Both the position numbers and the translations under genes were made by a program. The notes under the pieces are model-generated. The model had not been told where the DNA came from, made no database searches, and was given only the letters and a program-made list of their open reading frames with translations. From a virus (taxonomy: Duplodnaviria > Caudoviricetes): a stretch of 53,271 nt of DNA. This document shows positions 14,923 to 49,007 of this stretch, in pieces; position 1 is the stretch's first letter, and the number at the start of each line of letters is the position of its first letter. The DNA lies in the IMG/VR virus record IMGVR_UViG_3300034374_002820, positions 1 to 53,271 of that record; one strand, given 5' to 3'.

Positions 14923-15576
14923 TTAGAAGTCTTCTATAATTTTTTCTAGCTTTTCATTTAGATCGTGGCATACTTCTTTAGGTATGAATTTAATACCACC
15001 GATCTGTCTGTTATAGTACTCCCGTTCTTCCTGACTGTCTAGTTTATTTGTCAGGACATCGAGTTTATGCTGAGCGTTTGCTTCTGCGTATGTCAGTCCT
15101 CCTCTTGTCTCATACTGGTGGATGATTACAAACCTGAAGTTAGTAAGACCGTAGTCTTTAATAGCTTGGTGGAGATATTTTGACGAACCTTTATAAGTCT
15201 TCCAGTCCGTATAACCTACGGCTTTCTTCTTGGAATATCTTTTGAATTGTTTTCGTCCAATATATTTCTGTTTTGTTTTGTTATTGTAGACGATGTAAAG
15301 AAAACCAAAGAACCGCTTAGGGTCTAGGTCTTCTTCAAAAGAAACTTCCCACGGCGTCAGTGTAATACTTTGGCTTGTCGTTCCAGCCTTTTTCTTCGAA
15401 GAGCCCCTCGCCGTTGTTCGAGTCCGCCCAACACGTATGTTTGAAATCGCAGTAGACACATCCTGATCTAAGATACTGTCGTCCGTCCTTCTTGGCCGTG
15501 ACCGGGGTAAAGCATCTTTCCGGGGGTTCTTCCTTGCTGATGATTTCCTTGGCTTCGGCGATCCTTTCTTTGGCAT
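14923..15576 (-). CDS. GIY-YIG family nuclease (true start uncertain, probably near 15360)
   Basis: GFLYIVYN...KYIGRKQF, W..YKGSS, E...Q and YYN motifs; the first ~70 codons overlap the exonuclease gene. Confidence 0.75.
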   Translation of the reverse strand: MPKKGSPKPRKSSARKNPRKDALPRSRPRRTDDSILDQDVSTAISNIRVGRTRTTARGSSKKKAGTTSQSITLTPWEVSFEEDLDPKRFFGFLYIVYNNKTKQKYIGRKQFKRYSKKKAVGYTDWKTYKGSSKYLHQAIKDYGLTNFRFVIIHQYETRGGLTYAEANAQHKLDVLTNKLDSQEEREYYNRQIGGIKFIPKEVCHDLNEKLEKIIEDF

Positions 15577-16841: not shown

Positions 16842-18551
16842 TCAGTGGGTCTCTGCCCAGCTTTCGCCAATTACAACAGAACAATTTAGGTCACAATTAA
16901 ACCCAAGAATTGTTTTGGTCTTCTTGATAGAAGCATGGACGGCATCAGTTAGTTCATCAGTATCCTTTCTGTTAACTTCGAATTGGATTTCATCATGGAT
17001 GTTGGCAACAGGAACTGCACGAATTCTTTTTTGTTTAATTACCCTGTCAATCTGAACCAACCATGTTTTACATATGATAGCCCCAGCACCTTGGAGTAAA
17101 TAGTTTAGAGCAGTATGGGGAAACTGAACTGGTATACGTCGTCCATCCAACGCTGTTATATATCCACGTTGAACCTCTCGTTCTACCTTTGACTTCAGGG
17201 TCTGAAGTTTTGGTAAGGATGTCATGAAAGTATCTATCATAGTCTTACCTTCTCGTGATCCTCCCCCCACAATCTGACCAATCTTTGCAGGACCTGCCCC
17301 ATAAATCAAAGCGTAAATAAATGTCTTGGCCTGATCTCTGGTATCAAGTCCTGCTTTGTTCTGATTGAATGTATGGATGTCACCATCTAAAACTTCCCGT
17401 GTAAATTCTGGATCATTCATGTAATGAGCAAGGCATCGAAGCTCAAGCCCTTCTGCATCAGTGCCGAGCAACATGTTGTTCACCCGGTCCTTTGGAACCC
17501 AGAGGCTCCGGCATCTATCGCCATACACGGCTCTCACAGAGGGCACCTGAGCCATGTTAGGATTGTTATGTGTCATCCGTCCTGTGACTGTGCCCAGTGT
17601 CCTGACACTACCGTGAACCATGTTATCTTCATCAGCAGCAGCAATCCATGACTGAACTTGAGCTTTCCTTTTTTGTAGTGTCAGGTAGTCTACCATCTTC
17701 AAAGCCTCGGGACTGCCTATATCTTTCAGGATTGTCTCATCAATCTTTGGTTGTCCGGTTGGTGTGAACTCTTTCGGCTCCCACCCAAACTTATTAATTA
17801 AACGGTCACCAATTTGCTGACGGCTCCCCGGATTAAAGGGGATGATCTTTGTCTTTGTCTTCATCTGGATCGTGGTAGGTTCAAAGATATCCTGAAGTTC
17901 TTTTTCTGCAATGTTAAGGCTATCTTCAAGAAAAGCGTAGAAGATCATGGCCTCTGGCATATCAAGACAGAAGCCATGATCTTTTTGTTTGTCTATGATG
18001 TGTCTAACATGACGTTCCATTTGCAAAACATTCTCAAGTATATCTTTGTTGTTACGCAGGGTCATCCATACTTTTGCATTTACCGAAACATCTTGTACAC
18101 AATACTCAATCATCTTTTCAGTAAGGCCCCCGGCAAAGTCAGTGAACTCCTGCTTTGGAAAGTTAAGTATCTTACCCCAGTTTTTCAGGGAGTTACCGCC
18201 TTCTCTTCTCGGGTCAGCAATCTGAGACATCAGCAGAGTATCCTCGGCCTGATGCTCGATCTGTATGTCCATCCTTAATAGTCTGTTGATAATTGGGATA
18301 TCAAAACTGATGATATTATGGCCCACAAAAATAGTATTGTGTTTACCCAAGAATCTTTTCCTGAAATCGTTGAGGCTTGGGTAGCCGAAGCCCCCACCAT
18401 AGGTGAAGACCTCGGGAATTCCAAAGCTGACTTCCTGTACCCCAGAAAACTCAGACACCTTTTGAATTACAACACAGTAAATCTTTGTTGCGTCTAGGGC
18501 ATCCGTCTCGATATCAAGGATATATTTATTACCATAGGGGTTTTTCTGCAT
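16842..18551 (-). CDS. polA: DNA polymerase, family A (T7-like, with 3'-5' exonuclease)
   Basis: DIETD, GHNIISFD, YCVQDV exonuclease motifs; TGRMTH..PN, DAEGLELR, RDQAKTFIYALIYG (Tyr at the position equivalent to E. coli 762, as in T7), NIHDE. Confidence 0.95.
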   Translation of the reverse strand: MQKNPYGNKYILDIETDALDATKIYCVVIQKVSEFSGVQEVSFGIPEVFTYGGGFGYPSLNDFRKRFLGKHNTIFVGHNIISFDIPIINRLLRMDIQIEHQAEDTLLMSQIADPRREGGNSLKNWGKILNFPKQEFTDFAGGLTEKMIEYCVQDVSVNAKVWMTLRNNKDILENVLQMERHVRHIIDKQKDHGFCLDMPEAMIFYAFLEDSLNIAEKELQDIFEPTTIQMKTKTKIIPFNPGSRQQIGDRLINKFGWEPKEFTPTGQPKIDETILKDIGSPEALKMVDYLTLQKRKAQVQSWIAAADEDNMVHGSVRTLGTVTGRMTHNNPNMAQVPSVRAVYGDRCRSLWVPKDRVNNMLLGTDAEGLELRCLAHYMNDPEFTREVLDGDIHTFNQNKAGLDTRDQAKTFIYALIYGAGPAKIGQIVGGGSREGKTMIDTFMTSLPKLQTLKSKVEREVQRGYITALDGRRIPVQFPHTALNYLLQGAGAIICKTWLVQIDRVIKQKRIRAVPVANIHDEIQFEVNRKDTDELTDAVHASIKKTKTILGFNCDLNCSVVIGESWAETH

Positions 18552-19515
18552 CTACCATTTCCCTGATCATTCGTTCAAAGCCAATCGTTGGCTCCCACCC
18601 TAATTCATATCGTGCCTTGTCTGCATTTCCACAAAGCCTCGTGACATCATTAGGTCTGAGATCTACCGGTGTATTATGTTCCACGATTTCTGTCCAATCC
18701 TGTATTCCAATATGATTGAACGCCACGTCCAGAAGATCTCGAATGGATCGGGTAACTCCCGTTGCCAGAACGTAATCGTCTGGATCTTGTTTGTCAAGCA
18801 TCATCATCATGCCCCTCACATAATCAGGTGCCCAGCCCCAGTCCCTGACTGATTCGATGTTACCGAGCTTGAGCTTCTGGCCTGTGGTAGGGACATATCG
18901 TTTGTAGTCTGCCACGAATGCTGTCACCTTACGTGTCACAAAATCTTTACCACGTCTGGAACTCTCGTGGTTGAACAGGATACCTGAACATGCAAACAAC
19001 CCATATGATTCTCGGTAAACCCTGACCATATGATGAGCCGCTGTCTTGGCAACACCGTAAGGAGATGCAGGGCTAAGTGTGGTGCGTTCAGATGCCATAC
19101 CTGATGCCACCGTTCCAAACATCTCAGATGTTGATGCCTGATAAAACTTGGTATGTGGGGATGTGAGTCGAATTGCTTCGAGCATTCCGAGTACTGCGTT
19201 GGCATTCACGTCAAAGGTTGTATCAGGATTTTCAAAGCTGTATCCAACATGACTCTGTGCTGCCAGATTATAGAACTCGTTGGGTTGTTCCTTTTTAATT
19301 AACGACATCATAAAAGAGGTGTCGCAAATATCTCCCTCAATCTCTCGGTACTCTGAGTCGTAGTGTACGGGACCTCGATCATATTTAGATGAATGACGGC
19401 GGCTTATACCAGTAACTTGGTAACCCCTGTCGAGCAACATTCTGCTTAGGTAGTAACCATCTTGTCCCTGTACACCAGTGACGATGGCTCGTTGGTTTAG
19501 CTGTGCTTTTGACAT
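18529..19515 (-). CDS. gmd: GDP-mannose 4,6-dehydratase
   Basis: TGVQGQDGYYL, YNLAAQSHV, FYQASTSEMFG, SPYGVAK, GILFNHES.RRG..FVTRK, LGN....RDWG. Confidence 0.93.
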   Translation of the reverse strand: MSKAQLNQRAIVTGVQGQDGYYLSRMLLDRGYQVTGISRRHSSKYDRGPVHYDSEYREIEGDICDTSFMMSLIKKEQPNEFYNLAAQSHVGYSFENPDTTFDVNANAVLGMLEAIRLTSPHTKFYQASTSEMFGTVASGMASERTTLSPASPYGVAKTAAHHMVRVYRESYGLFACSGILFNHESSRRGKDFVTRKVTAFVADYKRYVPTTGQKLKLGNIESVRDWGWAPDYVRGMMMMLDKQDPDDYVLATGVTRSIRDLLDVAFNHIGIQDWTEIVEHNTPVDLRPNDVTRLCGNADKARYELGWEPTIGFERMIREMVDAEKPLW

Positions 19516-28134: not shown

Positions 28135-28302
28135 ATGGAGCTGCTAGAATCAGTTGGATCATTGTGGCCCATAGGGGTATCGTTCATAACACTGGTTGTT
28201 GTCCTCTCCAAAATGCACGCTGAAATCGATATCTTGAAAGAAAAAGTAAAGACATTATTTGATCTATACAACGACATACGTTCGAGTAAGAAAGACAAGT
28301 GA
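28135..28302 (+). CDS. Small single-pass membrane protein with coiled coil
   Basis: MELLESVGSLWPIGVSFITLVVVL...; GAGGGG RBS. Confidence 0.6.
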   Translation: MELLESVGSLWPIGVSFITLVVVLSKMHAEIDILKEKVKTLFDLYNDIRSSKKDK

Positions 28303-28306
28303 CCAA

Positions 28307-29188
28307 ATGAGCGCCCCCCAGAAACAACCACGTCAAAGCAGGCATCTTCTTCTCCAGTACAAGGGAACCACACTGGATGAGCTAAAGGAACTTGCATCCA
28401 TCCATTCCAAGGCGGGTCATCGGATGCAGCAAACCATCCGTGACCGTAGGATCACACACGACCCTGATGCCGGAAACCCTACCGGTGATTTTTCTGAACA
28501 CTACGCACCTGCTACTCTGGGTCTCATACGAAAAGAAATTTACTACCGTGAGAGATTCGGCGGAACCACGGTCTCGGAAAAATACCCAGATCTTTTTACT
28601 GTAAAAGGCCCCAAAAGCCCTCAAGCGATAAAAAAACAGGATAAGAAATTGTTGAAACAATATGATAAGTACCTAGAGACAAAGGATCTGGATGGACCAA
28701 AGTTTTATCAGAACGGTTCCTACAAGGACATCACCCGTGTCACCCTGAGCAACGGGCTGACAATGAGAGAAGAAAAGTTTTGTCTTAACTACATCGCCAC
28801 CGCAGATCCTATTGAAGCATGGATAAAGTCAGGGTATGATCATAGTTATCCAAACTACGATGTCCATGCACGTATGTGGGTCAGGCAACCAAAGATTCAG
28901 GAAAGGATCAACGAACTAATGGAAGAAGCAAAGGAAAAGATGCGTTGGAGCGCCGACAAGGTACTGGACAGATTCGACGAAATCTACAAGAGTGCGATGG
29001 CAGAACAGGATCACACGAACGCTTCCCGTAGCATGGAGCAGATCGCCAAACATCTTGGTATGTTCATTGACCGGTCAGAGTCACGGATCGGCAATCTTGA
29101 CAGCATGAAGTCCGAAGACATCGACACCGACATTTCAAAGCTCGCTGACGTTGTCGGACTCAAGGTTGTCAATGGTGGAAAAGACTAA
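28307..29188 (+). CDS. terS: Terminase small subunit with long N-terminal extension
   Basis: LT.REEKFC..YI......A.IKSGY....A......PKIQERI.EL HTH region and AKHLGMF tail; directly upstream of terL. Confidence 0.75.
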   Translation: MSAPQKQPRQSRHLLLQYKGTTLDELKELASIHSKAGHRMQQTIRDRRITHDPDAGNPTGDFSEHYAPATLGLIRKEIYYRERFGGTTVSEKYPDLFTVKGPKSPQAIKKQDKKLLKQYDKYLETKDLDGPKFYQNGSYKDITRVTLSNGLTMREEKFCLNYIATADPIEAWIKSGYDHSYPNYDVHARMWVRQPKIQERINELMEEAKEKMRWSADKVLDRFDEIYKSAMAEQDHTNASRSMEQIAKHLGMFIDRSESRIGNLDSMKSEDIDTDISKLADVVGLKVVNGGKD

Positions 29189-29304: not shown

Positions 29305-30837
29305 ATGATAGCAACAAACGAAACCACAAAAGAAAAACTCCGTGATGTCCTTCTGGAAAAGATGGTATCTCAGTCGAGATCAGACTTTTTCACATTTACA
29401 AAGGCAATCGCCCCAATTCTCATCCCCGACTTTGTCGTGGGAAGACACATTGAAGTAATCTGTGACACCCTACAGAAAGTCTCGGAAGGCGAGATCAAAC
29501 GGCAGATGGTCTTCCTACCACCCCGCTCATCAAAGTCTGTCCTATGTTCCAAGATCTTTCCAGCATGGCACATGGGTTTACACCCTGCCCATCAGATCCT
29601 GTGCGTGTCTCACTCCGACCGTCTCGCCACCGACTTCGGTCGATCAGTCAGGGACATTGTAAATGACCCCCTATTCTCGGTAATCTTCCCCGGTGTATCC
29701 CTCAGAAAAGACGTACGGGCCGCAGGCAAATGGGAAACAAACCAGAACGGTGTCTACTTCGCCGCCGGTGTAAAGTCCCAGATCGCTGGACGTGGCGCTC
29801 ATGTTGCAATCCTTGACGACGTAATGTCCGAGGAAGACGCATTCTCCGAAGCCGGACGGCGCTATGTAAAAGAATGGTACCCTGCGGGCCTAAGAACCCG
29901 CATGATGCCAAACGGCGGAATCATCATCATCAACACCCGGTATCACGAGGACGACATCTGCGGCTGGCTCCTCCGAAACTCGGAGGAGGACGAGTGGAAC
30001 GTCCTCAAGATCCCTGCATGGATCGATGAAGAATCCTCAAAAATCCTCAGTCTCCCTGTCGGCTCCTCATACTTCCCCGAATGGAAAACCACAGAATCTT
30101 TGAAGCTCGATGAAGCCGAGATCAAGAAGTATAACGGGACACGTTATTGGGAAGCCCTGTACATGCAGAACCCTGTCCCTGCCGAGGGTGGTCTCCTGAA
30201 AAAAAGTTGGTTCCAAGAATGGGAACACCCTGAGCCCCCCGAGTGTGACTTCATCATCCAGACCTTGGATACCGCATTCTCCACCCGGAGCACGGCGGAC
30301 AACTCGGTGATTCAGACATGGGGAATCTTCGAGTCTATCGAGGTTGATTCTTCGGGTCAGGAACACCATGTAGGGAACCTGATCCTTCTGTCGAATGTCG
30401 TAGGTAAATTCGAATACCCCGAACTCCGAATGATCGCCCAAGATCTTTACTCTGAGCACTCCCCAGACGTGATGATCATTGAAAAGAAAGCCAGCGGTCA
30501 ATCCCTGATCCAAGACTTGCGACGTGCTGGTCTTCCAATCCGTGAGTACACTCCTGACAAAGACAAGGTCTCAAGGGTCAACGCAATTTCACCCTTGGTC
30601 GAAAGCGGAAGAATCTGGATTCCAAAAGAAAAACCATGGGGCGATTCTCTGATACTCGAAGCAGCATCATTCCCCAATGCCGCCCACGATGATCAGGTCG
30701 ATGCCATGACCATGGCAATCCACTACATGCGAGAATCATGGAGACTTGAGCATCCCTTCGATTCGTCCTATAATCAGGAGGACGAACCCCCGGGACAACC
30801 TCGGGGTAAGACCTACTGGAATTCAGTAGCTGCTTAG
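29305..30837 (+). CDS. terL: Terminase large subunit
   Basis: PPRSSKS Walker A, GRGAH...ILDD Walker B, TRYHEDD, LYMQNP, IEKKASG, FPNAAHDDQVDA. Confidence 0.95.
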   Translation: MIATNETTKEKLRDVLLEKMVSQSRSDFFTFTKAIAPILIPDFVVGRHIEVICDTLQKVSEGEIKRQMVFLPPRSSKSVLCSKIFPAWHMGLHPAHQILCVSHSDRLATDFGRSVRDIVNDPLFSVIFPGVSLRKDVRAAGKWETNQNGVYFAAGVKSQIAGRGAHVAILDDVMSEEDAFSEAGRRYVKEWYPAGLRTRMMPNGGIIIINTRYHEDDICGWLLRNSEEDEWNVLKIPAWIDEESSKILSLPVGSSYFPEWKTTESLKLDEAEIKKYNGTRYWEALYMQNPVPAEGGLLKKSWFQEWEHPEPPECDFIIQTLDTAFSTRSTADNSVIQTWGIFESIEVDSSGQEHHVGNLILLSNVVGKFEYPELRMIAQDLYSEHSPDVMIIEKKASGQSLIQDLRRAGLPIREYTPDKDKVSRVNAISPLVESGRIWIPKEKPWGDSLILEAASFPNAAHDDQVDAMTMAIHYMRESWRLEHPFDSSYNQEDEPPGQPRGKTYWNSVAA

Positions 30838-30853
30838 AAACCCAAGGACACCC

Positions 30854-33800
30854 ATGGCACTCCCTAACGACAACATTAACATCCTAGATTTTATTCTCCC
30901 AGACGAAATGGATCTAGACGCTATTCCTTTTGAGCCAGCCCCCGAGATTTTTTTCTCGGACAATCTCGCTGAAGAATACCTTGATGAATCCGAGATCGAA
31001 AGAATCGGAAGCATTGTCATGGACTCTTACACGTCAGACAAAGAATCCCGGGCTGAATGGGAAAGCATGTTCGAGAAAGGCTTCGAACTCCTTGGTCTCA
31101 AGTTAAACACAACCTCTGAGCCTTTCGAGGGTGCCTGCACAGCCGTACATCCCCTACTGATCGAGAGCGCCGTAAAGTTCCAATCAAAGGCTTCCGAGGA
31201 ACTCTTCCCACCACAGGGTCCTGTTAAAGCCCAGATCATCGGCAAATCCAATGCTGAAAAAGAAGACCAGTCCGAACGTGTCCAGTCATTCATGAACTTC
31301 CAGCTCACCGAAGTAATGCCAGAATACTTTGACGAATTCGAGCGTATGCTCTTCCATCTCCCACTTGTAGGCTCGGCATTCAAGAAAATCTACTATGACC
31401 CCGCCTCGGAACGCCCTGTCTCCGAGTTCGTCCCCGTTGACCAGTTCTATGTCTCGTACAACGCCACGGACCTACGCCGGGCTGACCGATACACCCACGT
31501 CATTTACATGACCCCCCACGAACTCCAGAAGCAGATCATGTCCGGGATGTATCGTGACATCGATCTCTCAGAGCCCGGAAACTTCCAGCCATCGACCATG
31601 AGCCAGACAATCAACTCAATCATGGGCATCGAATTCAACGCCGAGCACGACAAGCAGTACACCCTGCTAGAACAGCACCTGTACCTCGAACTCGAGGATG
31701 ACGAATTCCCATCACCTTATATTGTCACCGTTGAAAACGACTCTGGTCAGGTCCTCGGCATCCGACGCAACTGGAACGAAAACGATCCAACCCGTGAGAA
31801 GAAGATGTACTTCACTCACTACAAGTACGTCCCCGGCTTCGGCTTCTACGGTCTCGGCCTGATTCACTTCCTCGGTAACATGACCATGTCTGCCACTCTG
31901 GCAATGCGTTCCCTCCTAGATGCTGGCCAGTTTGCCAATCTACCCGGCGGCTTCAAGGCCCGTGGCATCAGGATTGTCGGCGGTGATGATCCCATCGCCC
32001 CCGGCGAGTTCAAGGAAGTCGAAGCAACGGGTATGGACCTGAACAAGGCCATTGTCCCACTCCCTTACAAGGAGCCTTCCCAGACCCTGTTCCAGCTTCT
32101 GGGCTTTATCACGCAAGCCGGTCAAAAATTCGCAGACTCCACGGACGCTGTGGTATCTGATGCATCGAACTACGGACCCGTGGGTACGACCTTGGCTCTT
32201 ATCGAGGCTTCAGCAAAGCTCTTCTCGGCCATTCACAAGCGCCTACACAAGAGTCAGAAAGATGAACTCCGGATTTTGGCCCGGCTAAACTACGAGTTCC
32301 TCCCAGATGAGCAGATGATGATCCCTATTCCGGGCCGTGAACTACCTGTCACCCGTTCTGACTTCGACGGACGTGTCGATATCATCCCGGTCTCTGACCC
32401 TAACATTCCCTCACAGGCTCATCGTCTGGCACAGGCCCAGCTACTTCTCCAGATTTCAGCACAGTCAACCCCCGGCACCTATGACATGCGAGAAGTACAC
32501 AGGTCCTTGCTCACAGCCGCCGGTGTACGGGAACCATCACGTTTCCTATCCGCCGAAAAGGAACCTCAGGAACAAGATCCTGTCTCTGATATTCTGGCGG
32601 CATCAAAGGGTCTCCCGATCTCTGCCTTCCCCGGTCAGGATCATCAGGCATACATCCGAGTCTTCACATCATTCTTGCAAGACCCCACCCTTGGCCAGAA
32701 CAAGATTCTTCAAAGCATCGGTCCGATCCTACAAGCCGCCATCAGGGATCATATGATGATGCAGTATCAGGAGACCATGAGTGGTCTGATGAATGAAGCC
32801 GGTGTCGCACAAAACCCAGATGTCATGCCCGAGATCATGGCCGAGGCCGCTCAACAGATCCTGAATGCTAACCAGCAGCTCGGTCAGTACCAGAGTCTGG
32901 AACAGCAGCAACTAGCCCTAGAGTCCAGAAGTCTTGAGCTAAAGGAAAAGAGCTTAGATCAGGACAACGCCAGAGAGATGGCCGACCTCTCCCTGAAGAA
33001 ACAGGAACTCGACATCCGCCGCCGTGGTCAGGACATCGACGCAGCAAAAGACATCGGTGTCAACACAATCCGAAACAAGGAAGCCGAGAACAAAAAGGAC
33101 ATCATGCTCCAGAAATTCCTTTTGGAAGGACTTGGCAAGATGCGAGACATTAACTTATCACAAGAGACCAAAGGATTTGCCGACGGCGGAGCCGCAGAAA
33201 TCAAAGGGTATAAACCCGGAGGCACGGTAACCTTTGACGATGTCATTGCCTTGATCAATAGCTACGATCCTGAACAGCTAGGTACCGGCTCTGATATTTA
33301 CCCCGACGAAGCCCGTGCCATGGCGGAAGCAGCAGCATATCGAAACAACATGAGTATGTACGAAGATATTCAGAACACTAAGAAATCACAGTTCTCTGAA
33401 ACCCCGGATATTAATGTATCAGGGTTAAAAGTACCAGAAGTAGAGCCCCTGTCTCCCACCGACGCAAGCATGTTCAAGGCTATGCAGAGTCTGCCAGAAG
33501 TAAAGCCCCTGTCTCCCACCGATGCAAGCATGTTCGAGGCTATGCAGAGTCTACCAGAAGTAAAGCCCACGGCACCTCAGAGTACTACGTCAGAAGAAGT
33601 AGAAGAACCCACGACATCCCAGATTCTAGGGGGCCGTCCACAACATTTATATACGCACCCAATAACTACATTTATGGAAGGTCTTGGAGGCCGTGAGGGC
33701 GATTACGATCATTGGGATAAAATAGCCAACGAATTCACTCTAGCTTACGGTGTTGTTCCTGAAATCGATAGTGTTACTATTGTCTTGGATGCCAAGGGCA

Positions 33801-34369
33801 ACATTGATGAGGAGAAAACTGATATCTCCGGTGCCAGAAAAGGTGATATTGATGATCCGGATGCTCTGTATTTGGCAGACTACAATAATGATAAGAAAGC
33901 CTTTGCGGAAGCCGTTGCCTTACAATTTTATAATGAAGTTAAAGATCAAGAATATAATGGAAAACCCTTAAAAGCTTATAATGAAGAAGCTCAAGCAGCA
34001 GTGATTGATACTATCTATAATTTCCGAGAGGCTTCGGGCTGGGACGATGTTAGCCTGTTTCTAGATGAGTCAGATAATATTGGTACTGAGGATTATAATA
34101 GGGATAACCTCCTCCAGTTCACACGAAATTTTAGGGCAGGTGGAAAATTTCTACCGGGCATGTTAAAAAGAAGACTCTTAGCATACAATATGGTTGCACC
34201 TTTAGAAGACCGAGCAGTCAAAATTGAAATCTCAGAAAGACTTGGTGAAGACGGGGAACGAACAGGAACATTTTACGATATCTACAACGCAAACGGTGAT
34301 ATTATGCAAAGATGGGAAAAAGATTATGAGGTTCCCCCAAAAGATCTAGGTACCTTACTGGTGGAGTAA
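30854..34369 (+). CDS. Portal protein with C-terminal extension carrying a GH24 lysozyme-like domain
   Basis: Portal core (PFEGAC.AVHPLL.E, GSAFKKIYYD, GFGFYGLGL.H, PYKEPS, PVGTT.AL, PVSDPN) to ~aa 770; then REG..HWD....FTLAYG, QAAVIDTIYN, AGGKFLPGMLKRR. Confidence 0.9.
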   Translation: MALPNDNINILDFILPDEMDLDAIPFEPAPEIFFSDNLAEEYLDESEIERIGSIVMDSYTSDKESRAEWESMFEKGFELLGLKLNTTSEPFEGACTAVHPLLIESAVKFQSKASEELFPPQGPVKAQIIGKSNAEKEDQSERVQSFMNFQLTEVMPEYFDEFERMLFHLPLVGSAFKKIYYDPASERPVSEFVPVDQFYVSYNATDLRRADRYTHVIYMTPHELQKQIMSGMYRDIDLSEPGNFQPSTMSQTINSIMGIEFNAEHDKQYTLLEQHLYLELEDDEFPSPYIVTVENDSGQVLGIRRNWNENDPTREKKMYFTHYKYVPGFGFYGLGLIHFLGNMTMSATLAMRSLLDAGQFANLPGGFKARGIRIVGGDDPIAPGEFKEVEATGMDLNKAIVPLPYKEPSQTLFQLLGFITQAGQKFADSTDAVVSDASNYGPVGTTLALIEASAKLFSAIHKRLHKSQKDELRILARLNYEFLPDEQMMIPIPGRELPVTRSDFDGRVDIIPVSDPNIPSQAHRLAQAQLLLQISAQSTPGTYDMREVHRSLLTAAGVREPSRFLSAEKEPQEQDPVSDILAASKGLPISAFPGQDHQAYIRVFTSFLQDPTLGQNKILQSIGPILQAAIRDHMMMQYQETMSGLMNEAGVAQNPDVMPEIMAEAAQQILNANQQLGQYQSLEQQQLALESRSLELKEKSLDQDNAREMADLSLKKQELDIRRRGQDIDAAKDIGVNTIRNKEAENKKDIMLQKFLLEGLGKMRDINLSQETKGFADGGAAEIKGYKPGGTVTFDDVIALINSYDPEQLGTGSDIYPDEARAMAEAAAYRNNMSMYEDIQNTKKSQFSETPDINVSGLKVPEVEPLSPTDASMFKAMQSLPEVKPLSPTDASMFEAMQSLPEVKPTAPQSTTSEEVEEPTTSQILGGRPQHLYTHPITTFMEGLGGREGDYDHWDKIANEFTLAYGVVPEIDSVTIVLDAKGNIDEEKTDISGARKGDIDDPDALYLADYNNDKKAFAEAVALQFYNEVKDQEYNGKPLKAYNEEAQAAVIDTIYNFREASGWDDVSLFLDESDNIGTEDYNRDNLLQFTRNFRAGGKFLPGMLKRRLLAYNMVAPLEDRAVKIEISERLGEDGERTGTFYDIYNANGDIMQRWEKDYEVPPKDLGTLLVE
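33434..33568 (+). repeat. 60-bp coding tandem repeat in the portal-lysozyme linker
   Basis: PEV(E/K)PLSPTDASMF(K/E)AMQSL x2 plus a partial third copy. Confidence 0.9.
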
Positions 34370-34374
34370 CATAG

Positions 34375-34521
34375 ATGCCTTGGCGTAATGTTGGAAATGT
34401 GGTACAAAAGAAAGTAGGCGGTAAATGGAAGAAACATGCCAAGGCTTCTTCTGTTGATAACGCCAAGAAAATGATCCGTCGTCTTTACCAAGTCGAGCGG
34501 AAAACGACAAAAGGAAAATAG
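34375..34521 (+). CDS. Small basic protein (48 aa, not in ORF track)
   Basis: MPWRNVGNVVQKKVGGKWKKHAKA...; GGAG RBS; fills the gap after portal. Confidence 0.6.
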   Translation: MPWRNVGNVVQKKVGGKWKKHAKASSVDNAKKMIRRLYQVERKTTKGK

Positions 34522-34526
34522 GTATT

Positions 34527-34724
34527 ATGAAAGGCAAAATGAGCAAGGGTCCCGGTAAACTGGCCCCGAGTCAGGATTGGTCTAAACTCCCCTCTTCAGA
34601 ATGGACGGTGCGATCACATGTTGCCGTTTTACGTGGTGATCCTTCCAGTGATTACAACACAAACGTGACGCCAACCATGGCAAATCTTTCCTCGTACACG
34701 GCAAAGGCCAGCCGAAGAAAGTAA
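34527..34724 (+). CDS. Small basic hypothetical protein
   Basis: 65-aa ORF in late operon. Confidence 0.55.
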   Translation: MKGKMSKGPGKLAPSQDWSKLPSSEWTVRSHVAVLRGDPSSDYNTNVTPTMANLSSYTAKASRRK

Positions 34725-34730
34725 TCGAAA

Positions 34731-34922
34731 CTGTTTGAAGACCTAAAATCCGAGATTCGGCAGGAAATTGATGGTGTCCAGTCGAGTCTGTCCAAAGGTG
34801 TTTGCGAAACTTATGCAGAGTATCAGCGCATGGTAGGAATGATCCACGGTTTAGAGTTGGCCATTTCAAAGTGTTCTGATATTGAGAGAAGACTCACCGA
34901 ATATGATGAGGAAGAATTTTAA
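34731..34922 (+). CDS. Small protein upstream of GroES, apparently starting at CTG
   Basis: (L)FEDLKSEIRQEIDGVQSSLSKGVCETYAEYQRMVGMIHGLELA...EEEF fills the gap; no ATG/GTG/TTG at its 5' end. Confidence 0.6.
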   Translation: MFEDLKSEIRQEIDGVQSSLSKGVCETYAEYQRMVGMIHGLELAISKCSDIERRLTEYDEEEF

Positions 34923-34927
34923 CCACC

Positions 34928-35344
34928 ATGTTTGAACCAGAACTAAGCCGATCCATGTTAAATGATGACTGGATCTCAGAGTCAGCTATCCCAGATCCAG
35001 AACCACTCCCAAAGATCCCCGGCTATCGTCTCCTGATCCGCCCTGTGCCGATCAGGTCAAAGACAAAGGGTGGCATCATTCTCCCTGACAAGGCCAAGGA
35101 TGACATGAAGTACCTGTCAACGGTGGGCCGTGTTCTCTCCGTGGGAGACTTGGCCTATGATGACAAGGACAAGTTTCAAAAAGGTCCATGGTGTAAACCG
35201 GGGGACTATGTTTGCTACGGTAAGCACACAGGTGCTAAGTTCTTATACAAGGGTGTCAGACTAATTATCTGCTATGATGATGAAATCACCATGGTGGTAG
35301 AAGATCCTTCAAGTCTTGACCCAATGTTTAATCTATCTAACTAG
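34928..35344 (+). CDS. groES: GroES-like co-chaperonin
   Basis: GYRLLIRP...KTKGGIILPD, GRVLSVG, GPWCKPGDYV, YDDEI. Confidence 0.88.
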   Translation: MFEPELSRSMLNDDWISESAIPDPEPLPKIPGYRLLIRPVPIRSKTKGGIILPDKAKDDMKYLSTVGRVLSVGDLAYDDKDKFQKGPWCKPGDYVCYGKHTGAKFLYKGVRLIICYDDEITMVVEDPSSLDPMFNLSN

Positions 35345-37504: not shown

Positions 37505-38410
37505 ATGGCTATTAATCGTGCGGATATCGCCAAGCAACTCCTTCCCGGCCTGAATGCAATTTTCGGTCTAGAGTATGCAGCCGTTGATGAAGAGCATAGT
37601 CCTCTATTCGACATGGAAAACTCTGATCGTGCATTTGAGGAAGAAGTGCTTATGACTGGCTTTGGCGCAGCCCCAACTAAAGCTGAAGGTGCAGCAGTTG
37701 TTTATGATACCGCTCAGGAATCATGGACTTCCCGCTACACCGCTGAGACTGTTGCCCTTGCTTTCGCCGTCACGGAAGAAGCAATGGAAGACAATCTCTA
37801 TGACACGTTCGCAAAGGTCAGGGCTCGTGCCTTGGCCCGGGCAATGGCTCAGACCAAGCAGGTCAAGGCCGCTAACGTGTACAACAACGGTTTCACTGCT
37901 GGCTATGTCGGTGGTGATGGTGTCGTGCTGTTCTCAGCCGCCCATCCCACTGTCGGCGATGGCAATCAGTCAAACCTAGAGACTGCCGCTGATCTATCAG
38001 AAGGCACCCTCGAAACCGCAATCATCAACACTCATAAGATCAAGGATGATCGTGGTATCTTCATCGGTGCTTCACCAGTCTCACTCCATGTGGCCCCGGA
38101 TGGCCAGTTCGATGCAGATCGAATTCTTGCTTCTCCGGGTCGGTCCAACACAGATTTGAACGACATCAACGCCGTTCGTAATCTGGGCCTTGTTCCAAAT
38201 GGTTACTATGTCAACCGTCGTTTCACCGACGCAGACGCATGGTTCCTGCGGAACGACTGTCCCAATGGTACAAAGATGTTCATGCGAGCACCTCTTGCCA
38301 CGAAGATGGAGCCAGACTTTGACACCGGTAACCTTCGCTTCAAGGCCCGTGAGCGTTATAGCTTTGGCTGGAGTGACTGGCGTCAGTGGCGAGGCAACCC
38401 GGGCGTCTAA
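37505..38410 (+). CDS. Major capsid protein
   Basis: AINRA.IAKQLLPGLNAIFGLEY, SDRAFEEEV, TEEAMEDNLY, DFDTGNLRFKARERYSFGWSDWR; strong GGAGG RBS, followed by a terminator. Confidence 0.9.
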   Translation: MAINRADIAKQLLPGLNAIFGLEYAAVDEEHSPLFDMENSDRAFEEEVLMTGFGAAPTKAEGAAVVYDTAQESWTSRYTAETVALAFAVTEEAMEDNLYDTFAKVRARALARAMAQTKQVKAANVYNNGFTAGYVGGDGVVLFSAAHPTVGDGNQSNLETAADLSEGTLETAIINTHKIKDDRGIFIGASPVSLHVAPDGQFDADRILASPGRSNTDLNDINAVRNLGLVPNGYYVNRRFTDADAWFLRNDCPNGTKMFMRAPLATKMEPDFDTGNLRFKARERYSFGWSDWRQWRGNPGV

Positions 38411-45791: not shown

Positions 45792-46466
45792 ATGCCTGAT
45801 ATTATTCTAGTAGGCGGACTACTAACTCCACCGCCACCACCACCACCCCCGCCACCTCCTCCACCTCCACCCCCGCCACCAGCAATGACCTGTTTTGCCA
45901 GCGATACTCTAATATTGATGGGTGATCTTTCATGGAAACAGATCAACGAAGTCGAAGTCGGAGATTACGTAATCTCGATGTCTGGCAAACCTGTTGAGGT
46001 TCTGGAGAACAAACCTGTCCCTGTATCCAAAGGACGACGGATGATGAGCCTACATCGTAAAAGACAGAGTAAACCCTTACGCTTCAGTGATGACCATGAC
46101 ATGTGGATCAGAGACGACAACGGGGTTGAACGCTGGGGTGTCTATAATTATAACTGGTGGCTATTGGAAGACCGTGGCTATGCCGAATCTTCCGAGGAAA
46201 ACTTCCCCGGTGAAAGCCCCTATGACTACGAACACATTGGTAAAGCAACGATGCCTCTCTTATACGGGAAACAGTACGAATTCGCCACCATCGATGGCTG
46301 GGAAAAGACCGAGGCAACATGGGATTCTGAACAAGACCCCGAAGAAATTATCCATGGCCTGTTACTAAAATCTGGTGGTGGATATATAGTAGATGGATTT
46401 GTAGGGATTTCACAGTGGTGCAGAACAGAGGACATTCGGGATATTCAATGGAAAGGTCTACCCTAG
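45792..46466 (+). CDS. Polyproline leader fused to a stand-alone Hint (hedgehog/intein) domain
   Basis: 18 consecutive Pro codons (45828-45881), then CFASDT.I.M.D...K.I.EV.VGD.V (block A), S.DH (block B), YIVDG (block G-like). Confidence 0.8.
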   Translation: MPDIILVGGLLTPPPPPPPPPPPPPPPPPPAMTCFASDTLILMGDLSWKQINEVEVGDYVISMSGKPVEVLENKPVPVSKGRRMMSLHRKRQSKPLRFSDDHDMWIRDDNGVERWGVYNYNWWLLEDRGYAESSEENFPGESPYDYEHIGKATMPLLYGKQYEFATIDGWEKTEATWDSEQDPEEIIHGLLLKSGGGYIVDGFVGISQWCRTEDIRDIQWKGLP

Positions 46467-47089
46467 TCTGTGGTCTTTATAGATCAGGTACCACATATCT
46501 TCAAACCATTCTTGATCCTGATAATACGCATACCGAGTACAAGCACGAGTTTGTCAGGACAGACATCCCAGACAAGATTAAATCCATGGACAGGGTAATT
46601 ATTCATAAGTCCCCGTACAAATGGATCGACAGCATCATCTCTCAATCATGGGAACTTGGTGATCACTACAGAGTCCATTACGAAAAAGGACACACCAAGA
46701 TCAGATGCGCCACAAGCCGGACACTCAGGGATACACCCGATATTGTCGAAGAGTATAAGACATACAGTTTGGAAAACATCTGTGATCTCTACAACAGATT
46801 TTTCCACTTCTGGTTATCAGATCCTTTTTCCTCAGTTATTAAATTTGTAAAATACCGGGATCTTATCAGTGACCCCGTCACAACACTGAAGAATCTTGAT
46901 ACCAGAATAGATCCAGACGGCTTACCTATAAAAGTTTCTGGTTCTTTTGAATTTACCCCTGAAAGAAAAAGAATGGCTCTGGACCCACGTATGTCGTATA
47001 ATATGACACCAGACATGTCGCATATCATAAAGAACAACGTAGACAAGAGTATATTAAAATCTCTTAATTACACAGGAGTGTTTGAGTAA
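46448..47089 (+). CDS. Sulfotransferase-like (P-loop) protein
   Basis: VCGLYRSGTTYL (5'-PSB-like), KH, KSPYKWIDS (3'-PB-like), VKYRDL..DP. Confidence 0.7.
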   Translation: MERSTLVCGLYRSGTTYLQTILDPDNTHTEYKHEFVRTDIPDKIKSMDRVIIHKSPYKWIDSIISQSWELGDHYRVHYEKGHTKIRCATSRTLRDTPDIVEEYKTYSLENICDLYNRFFHFWLSDPFSSVIKFVKYRDLISDPVTTLKNLDTRIDPDGLPIKVSGSFEFTPERKRMALDPRMSYNMTPDMSHIIKNNVDKSILKSLNYTGVFE

Positions 47090-47862
47090 TGCCCGTATCA
47101 TACGCTGAAAAACTAGCTGTAGTCATGGAGAACACTATTCTCCCTGATTGGAAAGTACTGGTGTCTTCTTACTTTGAAACAGAGACCGTTAATCGAGAGT
47201 CTGTTTTAGATGCACTCTATAATAACTATAATAGAATCAGGTGTGTTCAGGGAAGACCTATTCTTCCCAGCATTATCAGAGATTTTTCCTATATTGGTTG
47301 GGATAAGGACATGGAGCCGACCCCTCCTTTTACTGATCCTAATGAGGAATGGACCAACGGAGAAATTATTAAATACAGTTGGTTAAAAGGCCGGGGGTCA
47401 ACCTCCCCACTGGACTACTCGAATTACTGGCAAGATAAGAGGGTATGCGACATAGGCTGTGGGACTGGGACCTCAACTATCATCACACACAAACTGGGGA
47501 GTGTTAATGCTGTCTACGAAGGTCTGGACGAATCCCAAGTGATCGCAGCTTGTAATTTCGTCTTACTTAATTATGACGTAAGATTTTTTTCAGAGGTGGC
47601 CTCCATAGAAACTATTGATATGTCTTACGATACCTATATCATGTCCCGTATTTTTTATGGTGGGTGGGCTCAAAAGAATTTGGATCTGGGTAGATTTTTA
47701 CGAGACGAGGGAAAAGAAGTTCTTATCGCATCAAAGTCTCTTGTTGAAGGTACGAATCCTGAGACCACCTTAAACCCCTCAGAATATGAAATTCTTTTAG
47801 ATATCCCCCTCATATCAGACCCTGTGGGTTTTGGTAATAGATACGTTGTAAAACTAGTATGA
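47089..47862 (+). CDS. Class I SAM-dependent methyltransferase
   Basis: KRVCDIGCGTG motif I; TAATG-coupled. Confidence 0.75.
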   Translation: MPVSYAEKLAVVMENTILPDWKVLVSSYFETETVNRESVLDALYNNYNRIRCVQGRPILPSIIRDFSYIGWDKDMEPTPPFTDPNEEWTNGEIIKYSWLKGRGSTSPLDYSNYWQDKRVCDIGCGTGTSTIITHKLGSVNAVYEGLDESQVIAACNFVLLNYDVRFFSEVASIETIDMSYDTYIMSRIFYGGWAQKNLDLGRFLRDEGKEVLIASKSLVEGTNPETTLNPSEYEILLDIPLISDPVGFGNRYVVKLV

Positions 47863-49007
47863 TAAAGATTTACCCGGTGATATCTGATTCAGTCAAATCA
47901 GTTGATATAGTCCCTGCCACTAAAACCAGAGATTGGTTTTCCCCTCACTCTTATAAATGCACACCCCTTACTTGTGCGAATACCCTTGGATGGGACTTGG
48001 TACTAAATGAATCAATCACTGTCGAATGGGACGGGGGTGTCTACAAAGACAATCTCACGGTCCTAGAAGGTCACGGTGCAAAGAGCCACTTCGGAATAGG
48101 GACATTCACTCTAGACCCCGGATATGTCTGGCGCACTGATGAGAACATTAATCTCATGGTTATGCCAGTTCCTAACACAGACAACACAGATATTCAAACG
48201 ATGTCCGCAGTCATCGAGACTGATTGGTTATCGTACCCATGGTTTCTGACAATCAGGGTCATTAACAAAGGAAAAACCACAATCCCAAAAGGTACCCCCG
48301 TTGCCCGTGTTATTCCTGTGGACACCGGAACCATCGAAAATACCAAGATTTATAAAATGTGTGAACCGGACAGTGTCCGCAAAGAACGAGAAGTATTGAC
48401 AGACAAACGTGACAAAGCAGATGAGTGGACAAAAGATTATTTTAAAAAAGCACGTAGGTTTGTCCGGTGTTCTCCTGTTATAGACTATAACGATAGTTTC
48501 AAGATACTAGAAGAAAACGATATTCACTCTAAAGAATCTTTCTTAGACACAGACGAATGTTCTTATTTAATCAGAAACTGGGTTCCTGAAAACCCTGATG
48601 ACACTTCTGATCTTTGGAGAAACAAGATGTGCTGGTCAACCATTGAGGCAAATAAAGGAGTTATTGAGGAAAGACTATTACAATTCGCCCAGCAAAAAAC
48701 TGGTCTCGACCTATCAATATTAAACCCACATACTGTAAGGTGGGGCAAAGGGGATGAGATGTTAGTACATGATGATCTAGGTGAGCACCGAGAATTTCCT
48801 AACAGGCATTTTGCTGCTATAGTTTATCTTAATGAAGATTATGAAGGAGGTGAGCTTGTATTTCCACATCTTGGCTTAGGGATAAAAGGACATACGGGGG
48901 AACTTATTCTTTTTAGAGGCGGCTCTGTCATGCACAGAGTAAACATGATTACATCGGGTAATCGTTATACTCTTGTATGTTGGTTTGGTATAAAAGAGAG
49001 TGACTAA
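47859..49007 (+). CDS. DUF6065-like domain fused to a 2OG-Fe(II) oxygenase (prolyl 4-hydroxylase-like)
   Basis: N-part RDW...Y.C.PL..AN..GW, ETDW; C-part HDD, IVYLNEDYEGGEL.F, H.V..ITSG.RY. Confidence 0.85.
   Translation: MIKIYPVISDSVKSVDIVPATKTRDWFSPHSYKCTPLTCANTLGWDLVLNESITVEWDGGVYKDNLTVLEGHGAKSHFGIGTFTLDPGYVWRTDENINLMVMPVPNTDNTDIQTMSAVIETDWLSYPWFLTIRVINKGKTTIPKGTPVARVIPVDTGTIENTKIYKMCEPDSVRKEREVLTDKRDKADEWTKDYFKKARRFVRCSPVIDYNDSFKILEENDIHSKESFLDTDECSYLIRNWVPENPDDTSDLWRNKMCWSTIEANKGVIEERLLQFAQQKTGLDLSILNPHTVRWGKGDEMLVHDDLGEHREFPNRHFAAIVYLNEDYEGGELVFPHLGLGIKGHTGELILFRGGSVMHRVNMITSGNRYTLVCWFGIKESD

Follow-up and report, generated by a model that had tools for sequence, protein, structure and literature searches.

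Wall hydrolases borne by the phage virion are known on tails, on tape measures and on ejected internal proteins. The internal virion proteins of podoviruses are described as variable hosts of tail lysozyme domains (PMC4819975). In T7, gp16 carries a transglycosylase domain and exits through the portal channel; the same source notes that ejection proteins may connect loosely to the portal barrel (PMC8954989). Another kind of cargo is described for the MuF polymorphic toxins of temperate phages, head proteins which are encoded beside portal genes, are bound to the portal and have variable C-terminal toxin domains (PMC5576092). Here we analyze a 53,271-bp virus record from IMG/VR (IMGVR_UViG_3300034374_002820, Caudoviricetes; estimated completeness 95%), which we call the window at its full length. 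A reading of this sequence alone (the original prediction) had proposed that its portal gene encodes a portal protein fused to a C-terminal GH24 lysozyme-like domain. We confirm that the portal-lysozyme fusion is real, conserved and modular.

How does this locus compare with the described systems? The podovirus internal virion proteins, as published accounts describe them, resemble it in two ways: the N-terminal transglycosylase of T7 gp16 and the phiKMV-type lysozyme are wall-cutters carried in the head and presumed to exit via the portal channel, and such domains are mobile and vary among related phages, with homologues of the window domain occurring on proteins of this kind elsewhere. The difference lies in the carrier, which in the window is the portal, a fixed ring of 12 copies that is not ejected. 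We found no separate ejection-type polypeptide within the window open reading frame (ORF); the frame is uninterrupted and, by eye, no internal start has a ribosome-binding site. The MuF toxins, so far as they are described, are the nearest architectural analogue. In them, too, a head module associated with the portal stays constant, and a linker joins it to an enzymatic cargo that can be exchanged at the C-terminus. In the window, however, the cargo sits on the portal itself, the three cargo types described below are wall hydrolases rather than toxins aimed at the cytoplasm, and a Pfam scan of the protein finds no MuF domain (Phage_Mu_F or Phage_min_cap2). Virion-associated peptidoglycan hydrolases are themselves known, but we found no report of a portal as their carrier: full-text literature searches, with subscription journals and supplements outside their scope, returned no portal fused to a lysozyme or transglycosylase. 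The main text of a paper on HTVC023P-type phages (PMC9599517), which include a relative of this virus, does not contain the words 'portal', 'lysozyme' or 'endolysin'.

An ORF of this kind could be an artefact, either of a lost stop or frameshift or of a chimeric contig that joins a portal gene with a neighbouring lysozyme gene. The 60-bp repeat in the linker does fragment short-read contigs, and in one relative (L038) a stand-alone copy of the domain lies right after the portal gene with one in-frame TAG between them. Independent sequences nevertheless make an artefact extremely improbable. A search with amino acids (aa) 900-1171 among proteins of 644-2050 aa returned seven clusters, the window's included, of 1086-1188 aa, all of which have both the portal family PF23899 and this domain (domain identity 38-100%). 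Nine window-type fusion clusters from several sources emerge from the wider search described below, and four IMG/VR loci share the same uninterrupted frame. Of the words sampled from 32900-34500, at least half occur in each of 14 public sequencing runs, one of which may be the source sample. Contigs of two independent DNA runs (X2 and X5) cover 30 of 30 bins and show identical sequence with zero insertions or deletions; one of them, 852 nt long, matches 33571-34422 without a difference. The linker is nowhere crossed in full by one contig, because the 60-bp repeat and strain variants fragment the contigs there, but neither a gap nor an indel was reported. The only joints seen in the runs belong to variants in which the linker differs or the entire cargo has been exchanged (33267 to 34365). 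Across 33100-33700, the interval for which the original prediction asked for read support, the metagenome contigs show no stop or frameshift, and the proposed fusion stands as a conserved one. Run X7 contributed no contigs; an RNA-library run (X15) yielded only two 151-nt contigs, both inside the domain, and does not show transcription. The ORF contains no promoter-like sites and no plus-strand terminator-like sites. Separate translation of the domain from an internal start was rejected, since none of the internal ATGs before the domain has a ribosome-binding site when inspected by eye.

The original prediction assigned the C-terminus to the lysozymes on the strength of three short motifs, and it noted that the E-D-T spacing was slightly non-canonical. 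The motifs lie where it placed them: REGDYDHWDKIANEFTLAYG spans aa 946-965 (nt 33689-33748), QAAVIDTIYN occupies aa 1046-1055, and AGGKFLPGMLKRR covers aa 1095-1107, ending at nt 34174. They exceed chance: a profile-profile alignment with nine R21/DLP12-type endolysins covers all three regions (hhalign, family alignment trimmed to the domain: 90.8% probability, E 1.2e-6, 134 columns, RrrD residues 23-159 of 165). In the endolysin profile, built from nine R21/DLP12-like sequences, E35, D44 and T50 are invariant, and E948, D955 and T962 of the window protein align with them. The C-lobe matches this profile at 88% probability. Only the nine-sequence profile gives a usable result: compared with T4 lysozyme alone the family reaches a probability of 0.7%, and with RrrD alone 16%.

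The family behind this alignment is a real one. An exhaustive phmmer search of 1.84 billion representative proteins found 34 members at E≤1e-3, 17 of them at E≤1e-10, and in most of these the domain forms the C-terminus of a protein of 240-620 aa. In a 31-row family alignment E948, H953, D955 and T962 (E39, H44, D46 and T53 of the 262-aa C-terminal piece) are at least 90% conserved and G193, R197, R198 and N203 of the piece are invariant; E948, H953 and D955 are invariant in the seven portal fusions. E948 is the candidate general acid. Of these 31 proteins, six match the Pfam lysozyme family PF00959 (Phage_lysozyme) at E≤1, the best at 1.6e-5, and two members, P0003 (18.9 bits) and P0031 (15.6 bits), match nearly the full profile yet stay below its 22.3-bit cut-off. 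LysM occurs in six of the 31 and PG_binding_1 in one. None of five other portal fusions matches PF00959, a PHROG scan of the window C-terminus gave nothing relevant, and the domain has no tblastn match in 50,697 phage records. In the ESM Atlas, Phage_lysozyme clusters scored 0.89-0.90 with 144-151 shared features, which by the tool's calibration is only a lead.

Structure prediction points the same way. The AlphaFold 2 (AF2) model of the C-terminal piece, made with the family alignment (pLDDT 90, pTM 0.83), has a predicted helix that ends at E948 and places D955 and T962 on two short strands, as well as a beta-rich insertion of about 45 residues after the catalytic hairpin, a helical lobe and a four-strand C-terminal subdomain. 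The nine top Foldseek matches in the PDB are all phage endolysins or muramidases (PHAb10, DLP12, EC340, R21, the AB5075UW muramidase, PHAB8 and a GH24 muramidase among them), with probability 0.89-1.00 and target-normalised TM 0.36-0.59, followed by many T4 lysozyme entries. Among viral models (BFVD) the best matches are annotated as lysozymes; four have E≤1e-3, and the first of them is a 953-aa 'Lysozyme' from Erwinia phage vB_EamP-S2. The lysozyme-like fold and motifs of the original prediction are supported by structure prediction and profile alignment, although the window protein itself has no Pfam score. With the R21/DLP12 RrrD and P21-type GH24 endolysins, and more remotely with T4 lysozyme, the domain appears to share the fold, the aligned E/D/T triad, a 'YN.G' helix and a 'GL..RR' motif. 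It differs from them in its lack of a Pfam score, in the modelled insertion and extra C-terminal beta subdomain, in having no signal-anchor region and in its spacing: E-X6-D-X6-T in the window and E-X6-D-X5-T in most of the family, versus E-X8-D-X5-T in the nine endolysins. From alignment and model together we conclude that the last ~235 aa belong to the GH24-like fold as a divergent member whose active site is plausibly intact, below the reach of Pfam detection.

The other end of the protein is a portal by conventional criteria. In a Pfam scan of the 1171-aa protein the only match besides a sub-threshold and presumably spurious one to Coagulase is SU10_portal (PF23899), whose 43.6 bits exceed the curated cut-off of 30; the PHROG family phrog_1216 ('portal protein') matches aa 146-579 at E 3.6e-40. 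The small and large terminase genes (TerS, 28259-29188, and TerL, 29305-30837) lie immediately upstream, and a GroES-like gene, scaffold-sized ORFs and the major head protein (37505-38410) lie on the 3' side. By tblastn the portal core is matched in 18 phage records, every one at less than 60% identity, including the pelagiphages HTVC023P and HTVC027P and the roseophages CRP-901 and CRP-902. Portals of cultured relatives are short: 777 aa in HTVC023P, 823 in CRP-902 and 840 in 023Pt_psg01. In alignment all three stop opposite window residue ~755, just past a long helical segment. The window protein therefore has about 415 extra residues, in keeping with the original estimate of some 400 aa past the portal core. 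The segment corresponds to a predicted 63-residue helix, for which alone we used a full-length AlphaFold model (seven-sequence alignment, pLDDT 38.8, pTM 0.27). This helix is probably a P22-like, barrel-type C-terminal helix common to the short-portal relatives. The P22 portal likewise has a C-terminal helical extension that passes the portal crown and projects into the capsid, a likeness that rests on the low-confidence helix, but P22 ends with the barrel whereas the window protein continues for about 400 residues that include the putative enzyme domain.

Is the lysozyme-like domain the only cargo found at this position? We scanned IMG/VR with a portal alignment and read the frame through each match in the best 80 of at least 534 relatives. 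Identity was 70% or more in sixteen loci. A contig end truncates two of these, and the other 14 of 14 have open frames of 1031-1188 aa. The remaining 64 loci, whose identity is 56-61%, lack the extension and have frames of 794-880 aa. The window-type domain is present in only four of the 14 close loci. Five others end in an SLT lytic transglycosylase (Pfam E 1e-24 to 1e-22 in L026, L034 and L038; the tails of L027 and L028 are identical to that of L026), and the last five terminate in PF16754, a lysozyme-like domain of the Pesticin type (E 4e-24 to 7e-38). In the eight tails that were Pfam-scored, SLT and Pesticin stand far above their cut-offs. A database-wide search with aa 640-810, evaluated with three HMMs and in agreement with precomputed Pfam labels, generalizes the pattern: 52 of 52 portal clusters (847-1188 aa) end in a wall-hydrolase domain, 37 in Pesticin PF16754, nine in the window type and six in SLT PF01464. 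The query contained the junction unique to long portals, so this count describes the long-portal clade, not all relatives. The three cargo types have no detectable mutual similarity (hhalign 2.9% and 0.5%). Because three different wall-cutting folds fill one position, peptidoglycan cleavage appears to be the selected function.

Short portals and other genomic contexts complete the picture. Neither the family profile nor PF00959 finds anything in HTVC023P, CRP-902 or 023Pt_psg01, and searches of five short-portal relatives for SLT and Pesticin were empty; positive controls were later obtained for the family profile and the Pesticin search. Away from portals, a search with a narrower alignment located the domain in nine other IMG/VR loci, where a locus search with the single domain sequence had found none. 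The L008 copy (32% identity over 249 aa, E 7e-24) forms the C-terminus of a 913-aa protein, whose neighbour of 1482 aa matches a PHROG labelled 'internal virion protein'; the L011 copy terminates a 532-aa protein amid tail and structural genes. The stand-alone copy of L038 (P0003-like, 242 aa) directly follows a portal-SLT gene: at 4040-4382, at the contig end, the portal-SLT ORF stops at the TAG and the copy begins in the same frame. This arrangement could be ancestral to the fusion, or it could be a recent split or a read-through pair.

Cargo and core have different histories. Between the window and L023 the core is 98% identical in amino acids (dS 0.10) and the domain 51% (dS 0.88); between L023 and L029 the order is reversed, with the core at 85% (dS 1.64) and the domain at 92% (dS 0.07). 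Against the window, P0038 has 98% identity in the core and 48% in the domain, and P0036 86% and 82%. With divergence so discordant, the cargo is a recombining cassette. The original prediction had seen a segment more AT-rich than the portal core and taken it as a hint of acquisition. The segment is indeed AT-rich (GC 0.403 at 33650-34369, 0.525 in the core, 0.465 over the full record; among 1752 windows of its size the domain ranks in the lowest 3.4%), and the case for acquisition is stronger than was then thought, as the cassette has been exchanged between portal backgrounds and is replaced in sisters by SLT or Pesticin.

Likely boundaries of the cassette can be placed. On the 5' side, the junction segment at aa 773-805 (Table 1) is the last part common to all cargo variants and the likely recombination boundary; variant joints begin at 33266/33267 in two independent runs. 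In two runs word depth is raised at 33170-33277 and again just past the stop codon (34358-34465), which fits conserved flanks common to several co-occurring strains. The first ~100 nt 3' of the stop share this raised depth in two runs, as if common to many strains; a very basic 48-aa ORF begins 6 nt past the stop and is followed by a 65-aa ORF (34375-34724). A junction motif, GGAAEIKGY.PGG.V.FDDVIALINSY, is recognizable across most cargo types and absent from short portals. It might be a signal for cleavage, docking or recombination. Beyond it the linker has 33-84% identity among relatives, with many gaps, and contains the 60-bp repeat that the original prediction had reported in a low-complexity linker. 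In L026 (a 1134-aa portal ORF) the linker carries a duplicated module of ~75 aa (…DDVI.L.NSYEMPRYTPSQEEID..VAEMRNPTT.EP…); linkers of this clade therefore grow by internal duplication, as in the window's repeat.

Table 1. Positions of the features of the portal-cargo gene in the window, with the basis of each assignment
Feature	Position	Strand	Basis or remark
Whole portal-cargo ORF	30854..34369	+	1171 aa, coordinates including stop codon; internal stop absent
Portal core, aa 185-577	31406..32584	+	Pfam SU10_portal match
Long predicted helix, aa 707-769 (63 residues)	32972..33160	+	Low-confidence full-length model; alignment to short-portal ends
Constant junction segment, aa 773-805 (GFADGGAAEIKGYKPGGTVTFDDVIALINSY)	33170..33268	+	Alignment; tails of SLT and Pesticin variants; word depth; variant joints
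Variable low-complexity linker, aa 806-934	33269..33655	+	Length and sequence vary among relatives; low pLDDT
60-bp tandem repeat, encoding PEVKPLSPTDASMF(K/E)AMQSL	33432..33568	+	2.3 copies, 93% matches
Putative divergent GH24-like lysozyme-fold domain, aa 935-1120	33656..34213	+	AF2; Foldseek; hhalign; family of 34
Candidate catalytic triad: E948 (33695-33697), D955 (33716-33718), T962 (33737-33739)	33695..33739	+	Endolysin alignment; family conservation
Predicted four-strand beta subdomain, aa 1121-1171	34214..34366	+	Strands at 212-260 of the 262-aa piece, pLDDT >80; family-conserved

What might a hydrolase do on a portal? Portal C-termini face the capsid interior in solved portals such as that of P22. 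Because they point into the capsid, up to 12 enzyme domains would be packaged in the head. The function that we consider probable, by a modest measure, is that of a portal-tethered peptidoglycan hydrolase, packaged in the head for cell-wall penetration and possibly used in lysis too; the location in the head interior, the exit route, the catalytic activity and the timing are what we infer. The polypeptide is ordered as an SU10-type portal with a predicted barrel-like helix (aa 1 to ~770), the junction, a disordered linker, the GH24-type domain and the beta subdomain. In this proposal up to 12 hydrolase domains would be anchored on the portal inside the head. At infection, most likely once proteolysis had released them or they had unfolded, they would pass down the portal-tail channel before the DNA and cut peptidoglycan locally, the job of the lysozyme and transglycosylase domains of T7-like internal virion proteins. 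The same enzyme may act at lysis, giving it a dual role. Its catalytic module is an exchangeable cassette, for which recombination would act at the constant junction on one side and immediately 3' of the stop codon on the other. We favour packaging for entry because the C-terminus faces the interior and because published work puts wall-cutting domains on internal virion proteins that leave by way of the portal channel. A fuller scenario is possible but doubtful: the portal ring packages up to 12 hydrolases that are threaded or released ahead of the DNA, this sole wall hydrolase also serves lysis, and GH24-like, Pesticin-like and SLT cassettes are exchanged via the junction and the post-stop sequence under diversifying selection from host wall chemistry, all in an uncultured, aquatic, podovirus-like clade.

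Several observations weigh against a head-packaged enzyme that acts in entry. Some concern the enzyme. The window protein has no Pfam Phage_lysozyme match even at E≤10, whether scanned whole or as two C-terminal pieces, and neither phmmer nor the family profile finds a lysozyme among PDB sequences. The best Foldseek E is only 1.1e-3, with query-normalised TM of 0.30-0.37; hhalign gives no significant match for the N-lobe by itself (E 0.024), and the E-to-D spacing is two residues short. Between close copies dN/dS is 0.65-0.72 in the domain versus 0.06-0.09 in the core of the same pairs (0.06-0.10 for the core overall, 0.47-0.49 for the domain when compared with the window), rough values since they were obtained by NG86 from few substitutions. 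Such high ratios mean either weak, relaxed constraint or diversifying selection. Other points concern the route. Twelve folded domains of ~26 kDa must unfold to pass a portal channel. Linkers are short in some relatives (P0057 has 1020 aa and its cargo starts at 822), and tethered threading as a general mechanism was rejected because some are only tens of residues long. The window linker has about 165 residues, which at full extension would in principle be enough to bridge a short tail. Where linkers are too short for a tethered enzyme to reach the periplasm, release by cleavage or unfolding is needed, and no protease or cleavage site was identified. Finally, no other wall hydrolase was found in this 95%-complete genome or in a 100%-complete sister with the families searched, which points as much to lysis as to entry.

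That last point leads to the main alternative, in which the domain is chiefly an endolysin: unassembled portal-cargo protein, or a fragment cut from it, would degrade the wall late, and the fusion would be a device for late expression. Six-frame searches of the window with PF00959, GH19, SLT, Amidase_2 and Pesticin were empty (several hydrolase families were not searched), and Pfam scans of 38 other window ORFs gave no peptidoglycan hydrolase. A 100%-complete sister, G003, has only its portal-borne Pesticin when searched with five models (four Pfam families and the window-type profile). The short-portal phage CRP-902, by comparison, has a free-standing 'chitinase' (weak GH19, E 0.0023, below cut-off) and a 'peptidase', neither of which has a homologue in the window. 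The stand-alone copy after the portal-SLT gene of L038 likewise suits an endolysin, as it indicates that the family can exist as a small free enzyme. Yet an undetected second lysin is weak evidence, given that many ORFs have no family and 5% of the genome may be missing; with hydrolase families left outside the search as well, the missing-lysin argument is suggestive only. In the window the domain is preceded by neither a promoter-like site nor an internal start that has a ribosome-binding site. By eye, no holin-like membrane-protein ORF is evident beside it, the two small downstream ORFs being basic, not hydrophobic, and without Pfam matches. Elsewhere the domain sits on large virion-module proteins, some with LysM, a placement usual for virion enzymes and unlike that of small Gram-negative endolysins. 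We regard a chiefly lytic role as rather unlikely.

The weaknesses of the enzyme assignment invite another view, that the lysozyme fold has been kept by a non-enzyme that binds peptidoglycan or sugar, organizes DNA or ejection proteins in the head, or acts as a plug. The spacing of the triad, the insertion of ~45 residues in the catalytic lobe, the high dN/dS between close copies and the absence of a Pfam match would all suit a domain released from catalysis. They are opposed by the candidate residues themselves, E, D and T, at least 90% conserved across 31 members, with E948 and D955 invariant in the seven fusions. Sister phages, moreover, fill the same position with SLT or Pesticin domains that score far above Pfam cut-offs, which argues that peptidoglycan catalysis is the selected property. 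A non-catalytic domain is, in our judgement, improbable, and a portal-tethered hydrolase for wall penetration remains the reading we prefer.

Other parts of the window deserve brief mention. The 48-aa and 65-aa ORFs after the portal gene have no Pfam match, and 34300-35000 has no Rfam match. A 1901-aa ORF at 990-6695 matches nothing in Pfam or PHROG and has no BLASTP similarity to the 'internal virion protein' of L008; from its size and position (the record ends may adjoin in the phage) it is a candidate giant internal virion protein. Possible mobile elements are a Hint-like segment just past the tail-fibre gene (45792-46466; Hom_end_hint, E 4e-6, below cut-off) and a SegE-type GIY-YIG endonuclease in the replication block (14923-15576; E 3.6e-25). 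Sugar and modification genes are dispersed over three intervals (7498-9768, 18529-19515 and 46415-49007) and comprise an MptE-like domain with a methyltransferase, a GDP-mannose 4,6-dehydratase, a sulfotransferase-like ORF, and DUF6065 with a 2OG-Fe(II) oxygenase.

The window-type domain adds to the lysozymes a family that Pfam does not detect, with 34 representatives among 1.84 billion proteins. Its covalent attachment to the portal ring raises a question: how does an enzyme anchored in the capsid reach the periplasm? It may be cleaved off, it may unfold and thread through the channel, or it may never exit and have a role in lysis only. The clade offers a natural experiment, with a constant portal, three unrelated hydrolase cassettes and recent exchange among them. 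Such exchange could help to explain how these phages adapt to differing cell walls, and it points to the portal C-terminus as a place where cargo could naturally be loaded into phage heads.

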